Virus record (IMG/VR): IMGVR_UViG_2648501400_000002
Span: 1 to 23,959 of that record
Source of the DNA: a virus
Lineage: Duplodnaviria > Heunggongvirae > Uroviricota > Caudoviricetes
Length of the DNA stretch: 23,959 nt
Strand: one strand, 5' to 3'
Made by a program: the position numbers and the translations under genes. How positions within the stretch are numbered: position 1 is the first letter of the stretch; each line of letters starts with the position of its first letter. Under the pieces are notes generated by a model, which ran no database searches, was not told where the DNA came from, and saw only the letters and a program-made list of their open reading frames with translations. This document shows, in pieces, positions 5,431 through 6,767 of this stretch.

Positions 5431-5623
5431 TTGTGATTTTTTCTTTAGTTCATGTATTTCGATTTGTTTCTGAATTATCGGGGGTAGTGTCTTCCCTTTT
5501 CCCTGAGGCTTATCATGCAGTTATTTTCGCCATCTTGGTATTGTGGAAATACCGACATCCATAGCTTTGGTGAGCTCTGTTCAGGTGGCCAAATTCAGAA
5601 AACCATTACGGAGGAAGAAGGCG

Positions 5624-6190
5624 ATGGCTAAACCAGCGCGAAGACGATGTAACCGTAAAAGAGAAGATTTAACTGTTAAAAGGATATTTGAGTTACTAAG
5701 TTTCGATAAATCTACCGGGGTATTTAGATGGAAAGTTCCCACTCAGGGAAGGATAGCATTAAATAGTGTTGCTGGAGCTTTTGATTCCAACGGTTATTCA
5801 ATGATCATGATAGATGGGCGTAGATATAAAACTCACGTCTTAGTTTTTTACATAACTCATAATCGTTGGCCTGCTGGTCAAATTGACCACGTTAATGGAA
5901 TTAGGACCGACAATAGGCCAGAAAATTTAAGAGAATGCCTGCCAATAGAAAATTCAAGAAATATAAGGATCCGAAAGAATAGCAAATCAGGTTGCAGAGG
6001 GGTTACTTGGCACAAACGACAGAAAAAATGGAATGTTAGGCTAGGATTCCATGGCAAGAGTAAACACTTCGGATGCTTTGATGATCTGGAGTTAGCGGTA
6101 CTAGTTGCTGAAGAAGCCCGAGATAAGTATTACGGTGATTTTTCCGGCAACGAAAGGAGCACTTATGCGAATCTATCGAAGGAAATGTAA
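5624..6190 (+). CDS. HNH homing-type endonuclease with AP2-like DNA-binding region
   Basis: Motif [20 protein letters not shown] (HNH) followed by [51 protein letters not shown] (AP2-like). GGAGG ribosome-binding site before the ATG at 5624. The first 9 codons, MAKPARRRC, equal the recalled lambda NinG N-terminus. Confidence 0.85.
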
Positions 6191-6767
6191 ATGTTGCAAT
6201 GAATGGTTTATACCAAAATATCAAAATCAATATTGGTGTAATGAGATTTGTGGAACCAAGATAGCACTCGAACGACGAAGTAAAGAACGCGAAAAAGCGG
6301 AAAAAGCAGCAGAGAAGAAACGACGACGAGAGGAGCAGAAACAGAAAGATAAACTGAAGATTCGAAAACTCGCCTTAAAGCCCCGCAGTTACTGGATTAA
6401 ACAAGCCCAACAAGCCGTAAACGCCTTCATCAGAGAAAGAGACCGCGACTTACCATGTATCTCGTGCGGAACGTTCACGTCTGCTCAGTGGGATGCCGGA
6501 CATTACCGGACAACTGCTGCGGCACCTCAACTCCGATTTGATGAACGCAATATTCACAAGCAATGCGTGGTGTGCAACCAGCACAAAAGCGGAAATCTCG
6601 TTCCGTATCGCGTCGAACTGATTAGCCGCATCGGGCAGGAAGCAGTAGAGGAAATCGAATCAAACCATAACCGCTATCGCTGGACTGTCGAAGAGTGCAG
6701 GGCCATCAAGGCGGAGTATCAACAGAAACTTAAAAAACTGCGAAACAGCAGAAGTGAGGTTGCATGA
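6165..6767 (+). CDS. ninG: NinG (Rap-like recombination protein) with a replaced N-terminus
   Basis: From [30 protein letters not shown]... onward near-identical to recalled lambda NinG. N-terminus [15 protein letters not shown] differs from lambda [18 protein letters not shown]. Overlaps the HNH ORF by 26 nt. Confidence 0.85.

Follow-up and report, generated by a model that had tools for sequence, protein, structure and literature searches.

Homing endonuclease genes are well studied in the virulent phages T4, SPO1 and ICP1, and to our knowledge have hardly been studied in lambdoid phages. The nin region of the lambda-like E. coli prophage analysed here (the window, a 23,959-nt stretch of virus record IMGVR_UViG_2648501400_000002) carries an open reading frame (ORF) with an HNH motif at the place where the gene ninG would be expected to start. 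This raises the question of how a nuclease gene came to lie inside a coding sequence, whether it arrived and spread as a homing element, and what became of the gene that it displaced. A first-pass annotation of the window had proposed that a free-standing HNH-AP2 homing endonuclease had invaded the 5′ end of ninG and left the host gene functional.

Alignment with the lambda-like phage HK630 placed the beginning of the HNH ORF in resident phage DNA (Table 1). Over a short patch, 40 of 42 nt were identical to the 3′ end of HK630 ninF followed by ninG nt 1-29, and phage Lambda itself (KT232076) also aligned from the first position of this patch. A match to the ninG start that is exact over 29 nt and stands in its normal place after ninF is not due to chance. 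The ninG part of the patch, consisting of the ATG, the codons MAKPARRRC and two further nucleotides, is now the translation start of the HNH ORF and is preceded by a GGAGG Shine-Dalgarno sequence at 5610-5614. The first-pass reading that the ORF opens with the ribosome-binding site and first nine codons of ninG was therefore borne out by real lambda-type sequence; its feature start of 5612 falls within the ribosome-binding site, whereas the ATG lies 12 nt further on. Residues 1-11 were never covered by alignments to HNH relatives and residues 2-12 were predicted to be disordered, from which it follows that this leader was borrowed from ninG. Homologues aligned from residue 12-27 onward, which puts the native protein start at about residue 12-16. 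The C-terminal tail is likewise absent from homologues and predicted to be disordered (residues 181-188), and the last 12 or so residues run across the ribosome-binding site and start of the downstream gene, here termed ninG′. We thus show, at the level of sequence, that the HNH ORF has no start of its own and would be translated from the ribosome-binding site, ATG and first nine codons of ninG.

Table 1 Features of the ninG locus and its upstream neighbour (positions are those of the window)
Feature	Position	Strand	Details
AT-rich insert, 2.8 kb, 34% GC	2806..5610	.	Replaces most of ninF; blastn to HK630; separate from the HNH cassette
Lambda-type patch	5611..5652	+	Last 13 nt of ninF and ninG nt 1-29; blastn to HK630
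HNH-AP2 endonuclease ORF	5624..6190	+	188 aa; ATG 5624, TAA 6188-6190; residues 1-9 ninG-derived
Foreign cassette, 596 nt	5653..6248	+	Replaces 64 nt (nt 30-93) of lambda-type ninG; breakpoints from HK630 alignments
HNH_3 (His-Me finger) catalytic core	5825..5944	+	Residues 68-107; Pfam match
AP2-like DNA-binding domain	5990..6136	+	Residues 123-171; three-stranded sheet then helix, predicted
AGGAG Shine-Dalgarno sequence for ninG′	6155..6159	+	5 nt upstream of ATG 6165, within the HNH 3′ tail; read from sequence
ninG′ (Rap-type recombination endonuclease)	6165..6767	+	200 aa; PF05766, E 2.4e-84

The same alignment to the lambda-type nin region, which the first-pass annotation had named as the way to find the insertion point, upheld the proposed architecture and located the insert directly after ninG nt 29. 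The foreign cassette consists of two parts: an HNH-specific part (5653-6164, 39.3% GC) and a substitute 5′ end for ninG (6165-6248, codons 1-28 of ninG′), which has a GC content of 28.6% against 51.6% in the lambda segment that it replaced. The DNA neighbouring the cassette has a GC content of 49-52%. From 6249 the remainder of ninG′ is lambda-type, its identity to HK630 ninG running at 97% as far as 6767. Only short, chance-level repeats were found at the cassette termini. An imperfect 20-nt tandem was detected at the left junction of the cassette (5642-5682, TRF) and may be microhomology. Since neither a promoter nor a terminator was predicted within it, the pR delayed-early transcript should account for the expression of both genes. 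Among 67 cassette-bearing loci the left junction was identical in all, and a single junction pair was common to every copy, which points to one original invasion followed by spread via flanking homology.

The product of the HNH ORF was examined by profile searches and by comparison of predicted folds. Specifically, the Pfam family HNH_3 (PF13392) was matched well above its cutoff (42.7 bits vs 24.8, E 4.2e-11) over the motif [18 protein letters not shown], so that the domain search that might have discounted the first-pass reading instead supported it, and the protein also matched phrog_99 with an E value of 6.6e-71. The core contains D88, H89, N101, L102 and R103, followed by N110 (5951-5953); in an alignment of 14 sequences these columns do not vary, and D88, H89, N101 and N110 are all present in the window protein. 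An AF2 model was obtained with a pLDDT of 82 (above 90 in the core), and its top Foldseek match in the PDB was I-HmuI, 1u3e_M (probability 1.00, E 8e-3, 99 columns, rmsd 3.5); the model displays the predicted beta-beta-alpha metal-finger fold of HNH_3 / His-Me finger group 2. The ORF product is a member of this family (I-HmuI type) and a predicted endonuclease. RefSeq already annotates the gene as "HNH endonuclease".

The AP2 half of the proposed architecture stood on fold and not on profile score. AP2 (PF00847) remained below the Pfam cutoff over residues 123-171 (22.1 bits vs 33.3, E 1.9e-4), a precomputed PF00847 match was held by 2 of 15 relatives, and a PDB sequence search with the HNH protein gave only a marginal AP2 match, such that fold comparison was needed. 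In the AF2 model this region comprises strands at 127-130, 135-142 and 145-152 followed by a helix at 155-173. It could be superposed on AtERF1 (1gcc_A) with an rmsd of 1.3 over 51 columns and a TM-score of 0.67 normalised to the target, and on TEM1 (7et5) with an rmsd of 1.7. A sheet packed on a helix and superposable on solved AP2 domains is thus predicted by the model.

As the first-pass annotation had stated, NinG restarts at an ATG of its own inside the 3′ end of the HNH ORF. NinG′ covers positions 5-192 of the 193 in the PF05766 profile, and the two genes overlap by 26 nt (6165-6190) in different reading frames. The N-terminus of NinG in the window, [15 protein letters not shown], differs from that of HK630, [18 protein letters not shown]; among the first 84 nt of ninG′ only 53 are identical to lambda, and the replaced 64 nt and their substitute agree at 34 of 64 positions (about 53%). 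The cysteines of the C-x2-C...C-x3-C motif are nonetheless retained, C8, C11, C25 and C29 of NinG′ aligning with lambda C9, C14, C28 and C32, and the cassette codons rejoin the resident ninG frame at the conserved CGTK codons. Of about 61 loci, 56 had an intact ninG′ ORF, with a length of 200 or 203 aa. We show from these reading frames that the locus, despite the insert, retains coding capacity for a complete NinG that includes the N-terminal cysteine motif. The first reading of this N-terminus was correct in that it differs from lambda; it had been taken for a diverged version of the resident sequence, however, and proved not to be a diverged duplicate but foreign AT-rich DNA that was seen only together with the HNH gene.

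The origin of the cassette was sought in several collections. A search of 5.8 billion proteins returned no relatives of the HNH protein at 47-98% identity, and the only match among GTDB representative genomes was a planctomycete sequence of 39% identity. The N-terminal 41 aa of NinG′ used as a query returned only fragments of the same allele. When this N-terminus was compared with phages by tblastn, identity of at least 99% was found only in two HNH-bearing Stx1 phages and all other matches were at 66% or below. Two other identities for the insert were considered and rejected. A group I intron or intein was discarded as no Rfam family reached threshold in the window, the HNH reading frame is closed by a stop codon, and NinG begins in a different frame, at an ATG preceded by a separate Shine-Dalgarno sequence. 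A defence system was discarded as the HNH protein had no PADLOC or NCBIfam match; in the same PADLOC analysis NinG gave weak matches only, to the PtuB HNH nuclease. In the open-access literature we found no account of ninG being occupied by an HNH gene.

We then asked how the cassette is distributed. Of 5426 complete E. coli genomes, 538 carried it with an identity of at least 99%, and the same cassette with the same junctions was found, at 98% identity or more, in two Stx1 phages and one Salmonella prophage; complete genomes contained 571 copies in all. An uninterrupted ninF-ninG junction was carried by 926 E. coli genomes and the arrangement ninF-HNH-ninG by 30; the latter order was likewise found in a Salmonella Infantis prophage. 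Such presence/absence polymorphism at one defined site, as read from these genomes, is what would be expected of a homing gene. No substitute ninG 5′ end lacking the HNH gene was found among the E. coli genomes and phages, nor was the AT-rich upstream insert found joined to an uninterrupted lambda-type ninG. One apparent HNH-less carrier, EPSSH018, proved to be an IS-disrupted prophage in which an HNH pseudogene is still present.

The cassette was 99-100% identical across loci while its flanks differed. Clustering of the flanking DNA of the 67 loci gave 17 upstream and 8 downstream groups, in 22 combinations. Diversity was about 0.004 in the cassette compared with 0.05-0.09 in the 3′ part of ninG, with an intermediate value of 0.024 within 50 nt of the right junction and 0.05-0.08 at the 3′ end of the gene. 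On the left the first flanking polymorphism was encountered 2-4 nt ahead of the ATG, and on the right 9-108 nt past the junction; ninG 3′ alleles that are joined to the cassette also occur cassette-free. A cassette of low diversity with breakpoints near its edges and 22 flank combinations suggests rapid and recent spread across old alleles. From these comparisons the cassette appears to be younger than its flanks and unlinked from them, again as would be expected of a homing gene.

Family membership, site polymorphism and a near-invariant cassette in many backgrounds together lend support to the homing-type label of the first-pass annotation. We consider it rather probable that the cassette is a free-standing HNH_3 + AP2 homing endonuclease gene that entered ninG once and has spread by gene conversion, cleavage and homing both being inferred from sequence comparison. 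The alignments show that, in one ancestral event, the foreign AT-rich DNA was inserted after ninG nt 29 with replacement of the next 64 nt. We propose that, when HNH-plus and HNH-minus lambdoid genomes replicate in one cell, through co-infection or induction of a polylysogen, the enzyme would nick or cut the HNH-minus ninG region, and the break would be repaired against the HNH-plus copy via flanking ninF and ninG homology, copying the cassette together with short flanking tracts. The recoded ninG 5′ end, the one sequence by which carriers can consistently be told from non-carriers, would remove the recognition site from carriers and is probably immune to cleavage. The replaced 64 nt need not be the target, since free-standing endonucleases may cut DNA hundreds to thousands of base pairs away from their own gene (PMC2988022). 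More tentatively, the cassette may be an active homing element with a distinct mode of invasion, free of intron and intein, in which the incoming gene would take the translation start of its host gene while a recoded 5′ segment would restore the host protein and at the same time do away with the cleavage site.

It is also conceivable, though we regard it as unlikely, that the cassette is a passive mosaic module which entered by one illegitimate recombination and was then distributed by general homologous recombination and vertical descent, the nuclease having had no part in its spread and being perhaps inactive or weakly active. The common junction pair, which implies a single origin, would fit such a history, as would the typically mosaic nin regions of lambdoid phages (PMC2629481); these phages recombine freely, and mosaic flanks around a young segment can arise without a nuclease. 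The same AT-rich upstream insert was shared by 512 of the 538 carrier genomes, so much of the prevalence may reflect vertical descent or ordinary linkage, and in the canonical ninF context carriers make up about 3% of sites, which is not the picture of a sweeping element. There are, in addition, no close relatives that would mark a wider homing family at the ninG site. Against a purely passive history, the HNH ORF was intact in 64 of the 67 loci with its catalytic residues conserved, and its dN/dS was about 0.3-0.4, albeit on few sites. Diversity in the cassette is at least tenfold below that of the adjoining ninG 3′ DNA, with breakpoints within 10-50 nt of both edges, and the strict linkage between the substitute 5′ end and the HNH gene would be expected to break down under free recombination in the absence of selection.

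An improbable alternative is that the nuclease has been domesticated for the benefit of the phage, being kept to damage competing lambdoid phages or prophages, or to provide breaks for NinB/NinG recombination, rather than for its own spread. Its position in the early-right operon among the recombination genes NinB (2171-2581) and NinG and the upkeep of its ORF are compatible with such a role, and for homing endonucleases both marker exclusion and a capacity for co-option have been described (PMC2988022, PMC10448857). The protein, however, matches no known defence family, and most lambdoid phages that share these nin genes lack the HNH gene; domestication also overlaps mechanistically with homing, such that the two cannot be separated by sequence alone. 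That the 188-aa frame is a decaying relic or a mis-called ORF no longer expressed as a functional protein is very improbable: it has no start codon of its own, both its termini are non-native and in a few loci it has been altered by a frameshift, an IS insertion or an N101S change, but a strong Shine-Dalgarno sequence and ATG were inherited from ninG, nearly all copies are full length, the fold is predicted with confidence and synonymous changes are over-represented.

Returning to the favoured interpretation of a homing endonuclease gene, the combination of HNH and AP2 is a recognised architecture among such enzymes, known from the family of Magnani et al. 2004, the IPA-HNH genes of vibriophage ICP1 and His-Me finger group 2 (PMC10448857, PMC5714182). 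Like the ninG cassette, members of this family are free-standing in a phage genome and have an N-terminal HNH_3-type nuclease and a C-terminal AP2-like domain. The HNH gene at ninG differs in that its product, apart from its own near-identical lineage, has no relative above 47% identity, and in lying within a coding sequence, translated from the start of the host gene; the open-access literature yielded no report of a family member at this site. The catalytic half of the model is matched best by the HNH nicking endonuclease I-HmuI of Bacillus phage SPO1 (PDB 1u3e), which belongs to the same Pfam family and His-Me group (PMC5714182). I-HmuI is encoded in a group I intron, whereas no intron-type RNA family was found for the cassette and its host gene restarts at its own ATG. 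The two proteins are 19% identical over the aligned part, which is confined to the catalytic half, and the AP2-like domain has no counterpart in the match.

The closest parallel in mode of spread is provided by the Seg and Mob endonucleases of T4, which are also free-standing and present in some related phages while absent from others. These spread by break repair with co-conversion of flanking markers, a process described in terms of marker exclusion and intronless homing (PMC2988022), and such a pattern matches a low-diversity cassette with breakpoints near its edges. Unlike the ninG HNH gene, which lies within an ORF of a temperate lambdoid phage, the Seg and Mob genes usually stand between genes and their products often cut at a distance; the ninG cassette, moreover, brings a replacement for the displaced part of the gene. 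Entry into a coding sequence is illustrated by the MobE-type insertion in nrdA of Aeromonas phage Aeh1, the "genes-in-pieces" ribonucleotide reductase (Friedrich et al. 2007, cited in PMC2988022). As at ninG, a free-standing HNH gene is described there as lying inside a coding sequence, with neither intron nor intein; host function survives, as it probably does at ninG. The Aeh1 protein is split into two polypeptides, whereas the ninG locus, to which the cassette has contributed a new start and N-terminal segment, encodes a single full-length NinG. Lastly, gene 31 of Salmonella phage epsilon34 is an in-frame fusion of the eaE N-terminus to an HNH homing endonuclease (PMC2629481). Here too an HNH ORF in a lambdoid (P22-like) phage has captured the start and N-terminal codons of a resident early gene, but this fusion lies in the early left operon and involves another host gene and another HNH lineage, and no restored copy of the host gene is described for it (PMC2629481).

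Overall, the ninG cassette appears to be a neat but not fundamentally new example of such genes invading phage genes. Because it lies in the classic nin region of lambda, it lends itself to genetic tests of how a free-standing endonuclease can enter a coding sequence and leave the host gene in working order. If active, the enzyme would give the numerous lambdoid prophages of EHEC strains an in-built means of targeted breakage and of gene conversion with one another, and would be a nuclease or nickase of natural origin with sequence specificity for lambda-type DNA; if inactive, the cassette would be a well-defined insertion that already stands in annotation as an endonuclease gene. Its site lies about 1.2 kb upstream of the late-gene antiterminator gene Q (7426-8049), which in the Stx1 phage SH2026Stx1 is closely followed by the stx genes. 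In pathogenic E. coli and Salmonella, gene conversion by an active enzyme would thus take place next to the Q/late-gene switch of lambdoid and Stx prophages, and could contribute to prophage mosaicism.

The AT-rich insert upstream of the cassette contains a 590-aa ORF on the minus strand (3264-5036) that matches phrog_9230, a family with no assigned function, and a (TCTATT)n microsatellite at 5353-5429 (TRF). Some other cassette carriers have an intact ninF at the corresponding position.

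The window is a lambda-like prophage, with genes for replication protein P, NinB, the Q antiterminator, terminase gpA and a lambda-family portal. In its nin region, an HNH open reading frame and the ninG copy that follows it (ninG') overlap by 26 nt in differing frames, as read from the sequence. The first-pass annotation had placed a new NinG start within the 3' end of the HNH gene, and this was confirmed: NinG is encoded at full length by ninG', whose product matches PF05766 with E 2.4e-84 (profile positions 5-192 of 193).

Coordinates and base composition of the HNH gene, ninG' and their component segments
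Feature	Position	Strand	Length	GC	Upstream motif
HNH ORF	first ATG 5624, TAA 6188-6190 (open frame 5543-6190)	+	188 aa		GGAGG, 5610-5614
ninG' ORF	ATG 6165 to 6767	+	200 aa		AGGAG, 6155-6159
HNH-specific part	5653-6164	+		39.3%	
Substitute ninG 5' end	6165-6248	+		28.6%	
Replaced lambda segment			64 nt	51.6%	
Remaining ninG	6249-6767	+		48.9%	

The HNH motif noticed at first reading was assigned by Pfam as HNH_3 (42.7 bits, cutoff 24.8, residues 68-107). The AP2-like domain proposed beside it scored below threshold (22.1 bits versus a cutoff of 33.3, residues 123-171), and its predicted fold matches AP2 domains. Structural support comes from a predicted AlphaFold2 model, built on a shallow alignment, with a mean pLDDT of 82 and values below 50 only at residues 2-12, the ninG-derived leader, and 181-188, the tail running over the start of ninG'. 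In a Foldseek comparison, the best PDB match of the model was the homing endonuclease I-HmuI (1u3e_M, probability 1.00, rmsd 3.5 over 99 columns). Next came AP2 domains, namely AtERF1 (1gcc, rmsd 1.3 over 51 columns), TEM1 (7et5) and WRINKLED1 (7wq5). The fold matches have weak E-values, 8e-3 and above, since every match spans only a single one of the two domains. The protein also matched phrog_99, "HNH endonuclease" (E 6.6e-71), and none of the PADLOC defence models. By tblastn, relatives were found in 3048 of 50,697 phage records, in many cases under an annotation as HNH or homing endonuclease. Among the matches listed, residues 1-11 were aligned only by four records at least 99% identical, and the alignment of the other relatives started at residue 11-27 or later. 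When 13 relatives were aligned with the window protein, the homologues began at about column 11-16 and stopped about 12 residues short of its end, and D88, H89, N101, L102, R103 and N110 are invariant.

In order to fix the insertion point, the nin region of Lambdavirus HK630, a phage whose NinG annotation notes similarity to lambda NinG, was used as the base-level lambda-type reference (blastn). Window positions 5611-5652 correspond to the last 13 nt of ninF and nt 1-29 of ninG (40/42 nt), which verified the earlier claim that the HNH ORF opens with the ribosome-binding site and first nine codons of ninG; the alignment of phage Lambda to the window begins at the identical position, 5611. The match resumes at window position 6249, ninG nt 94, and continues through the stop codon, at 6767, with 97% identity, and positions 5653-6248 showed no match to the HK630 nin region. 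The two matches and the gap between them therefore establish that 596 nt replace 64 nt of a lambda-type ninG. The left junction lies directly after ATG GCT AAA CCA GCG CGA AGA CGA TGT AA, and the right junction at TGTGGAACCAAG, the codons for the conserved Cys-Gly-Thr-Lys. Across the left junction lies an imperfect 20-nt tandem repeat (5642-5682; AGACGATGTAACCGTAAAAG / AGAAGATTTAACTGTTAAAAG, 80% match, TRF score 54), which could be microhomology of the original illegitimate join, or chance.

The whole 596-nt cassette is considered foreign because its base composition differs from that of ninG. Of the substitute 84 nt, only 53 are identical to the lambda ninG 5' end (34/64 in the replaced part), and the C-x2-C...C-x3-C cysteines of NinG are kept. 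The first-pass description of the NinG N-terminus as diverged was refined: the new 5' end is foreign AT-rich DNA and no diverged duplicate. Neither a sigma-70-like promoter nor an intrinsic terminator was predicted within the cassette. No Rfam family was matched anywhere in the window, so no group I intron was found there and this candidate was rejected.

A search for the same HNH gene at further loci, as had been suggested, located the cassette at 571 places in 538 of 5426 complete E. coli genomes (at least 99% identity in 536 of the 538), all chromosomal and with few exceptions under the annotation "HNH endonuclease | recombination protein NinG". It was also present in the Stx1 phages SH2026Stx1 and AU6Stx1 and in a Salmonella Infantis prophage. 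No HNH relatives of 47-98% identity were found in a 5.8-billion-protein collection or in GTDB representative genomes. The substitute ninG 5' end occurred in 533 genomes, with the HNH gene in every case; among phage records, it was matched at 99% or more only in HNH carriers and at 66% or less elsewhere.

After an IMG/VR scan had added 56 loci, 67 cassette-bearing loci were compared, a subset of the 571 genomic copies. The left junction was identical in 67/67. Clustering gave 17 groups for the 600 nt upstream and 8 for the 700 nt that follow ninG, in 22 combinations. For pairwise diversity, the HNH part gave about 0.004 and the substitute 5' end did not exceed 0.01; beyond the right junction the value rose to 0.024 over the first 50-100 nt and to 0.055-0.08 over the final 150 nt of ninG. 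The first flanking polymorphisms on the left side lie 2-4 nt ahead of the ATG; on the right they begin, depending on lineage, at 6257, 6299, 6322 or 6356. The ninG 3' alleles joined to the cassette are also found without it: the window ninG 3' end is that of the HNH-less ninG in O157:H7 strain Z903, those of PK8241 and ETEC1730 resemble HK630, and a 9-nt insertion is common to SH2026Stx1 and Z903. The HNH ORF was intact in 64/67 loci and NinG' in 56 of the roughly 61 loci that could be evaluated; dN/dS in the HNH ORF was about 0.3-0.4, a weak estimate from about 23 variable sites. In locus L003 (E. coli PK8241), an IS3-family element (4508-5820, equivalent to window 6157-6159) separates the HNH 3' end from the ninG' ATG. 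Its 3-bp target duplication, GAG, falls within the ninG' Shine-Dalgarno, and the element lengthens the HNH ORF to 191 aa.

On sequence comparison, we consider it reasonably probable that these facts reflect a free-standing HNH-AP2 homing endonuclease gene lodged in ninG and since spread by copying. The gene entered ninG once, with an illegitimate left junction and a right junction within the conserved CGTK codons, and would then have been copied into many ninG alleles via short flanking homology. The cassette-borne 5' end plausibly has two roles, keeping NinG full length and destroying the recognition site; as the sole sequence always distinguishing carriers from non-carriers, it is the natural candidate for the latter. 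The pattern is like intronless homing in T-even phages, in which break repair co-converts flanking markers (PMC2988022), with cleavage presumed here. Free-standing endonucleases are able to cut far from their own genes (PMC2988022), and enzymes of the I-HmuI type make nicks instead of double-strand cuts (Landthaler et al. 2004, as cited in PMC2988022).

The main rival is a passive mosaic module, spread via ordinary lambdoid recombination and vertical descent. The single origin speaks for it, and so do the upstream contexts: a 2.8-kb AT-rich insert replacing most of ninF dominates (512 of the 538 genomes, and the window), and the canonical ninE-(ninX)-ninF-HNH-ninG order occurs in 30 genomes versus 926 with an uninterrupted ninF-ninG junction. 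We nevertheless regard this explanation as less likely, given that the cassette is far less diverse than directly adjoining DNA and occurs with many combinations of flanks, that the ORFs are intact, and that linkage between the HNH gene and the substitute 5' end is unbroken.

The enzyme belongs to an already known family, HNH plus AP2 with an I-HmuI-type core; HNH_3 with AP2 is a recognised homing architecture (PMC5714182, group 2; Magnani et al. 2004, as cited in PMC10448857). In the Aeh1 nrdA genes-in-pieces, as outlined in PMC2988022, a free-standing HNH gene is inserted into coding sequence and the host protein is split, whereas here NinG appears to be restored. Gene 31 of the P22-like phage epsilon34 encodes an HNH endonuclease that captured the N-terminus of a resident gene (PMC2629481), as the window enzyme bears that of ninG. 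Another unorthodox arrangement is an out-of-frame HNH concealed within a phage methylase gene (PMC11855218). Since RefSeq already annotates the gene as "HNH endonuclease", and no description of its relation to ninG was found in open-access papers, it is an unusual and tidy architecture within a known kind.

Several further features of the nin region were observed. The AT-rich insert (2806-5610, 34% GC) always adjoins the HNH cassette in the 512 E. coli genomes, and none of the E. coli genomes searched joined it to an uninterrupted lambda-type ninG. Its minus-strand ORF (3264-5036, 590 aa) matches phrog_9230, which assigns no function, and has no Pfam, NCBIfam or PADLOC match; strains of O26 and O111 have it split or as a pseudogene. 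The microsatellite at 5353-5429, a perfect hexanucleotide repeat (TCTATT/TATTTC, 12.8 copies), sits some 320-390 nt upstream of this ORF; it varies from 7 to 16 copies among otherwise near-identical loci and is possibly a contingency or regulatory repeat. In ninI, the serine/threonine phosphatase gene (6764-7429), a nonsense TGG>TAG (W93*) is present at 7041, a single G>A relative to the 221-aa gene that is intact in O26:H11 strain FWSEC0001; it leaves two ORFs, 6764-7042 and 7148-7429. The stop codon of ninG and the start of ninI overlap (6767/6764), and ninH, present between them in HK630, ETEC1730 and the Salmonella Infantis prophage locus, is absent from the window, which is ordinary nin-region mosaicism.

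HNH genes may have a hotspot in the nin region. In locus L012 (E. coli 14EC007, NZ_CP024131.1), a second HNH_3 gene (2074-2621, ORF 2115-2621, 168 aa, 37% identical to the ninG-located HNH) splits ninF directly upstream of the ninG cassette, replacing 9 nt at the C-x2-C codons; the RefSeq annotation at this place is limited to a partial HNH fragment. Phage SH2026Stx1 (locus L001), which bears the ninG cassette, also has a third paralogue, of HNH-AP2 type (453-1064, 38% identical), immediately behind its dnaB helicase gene.
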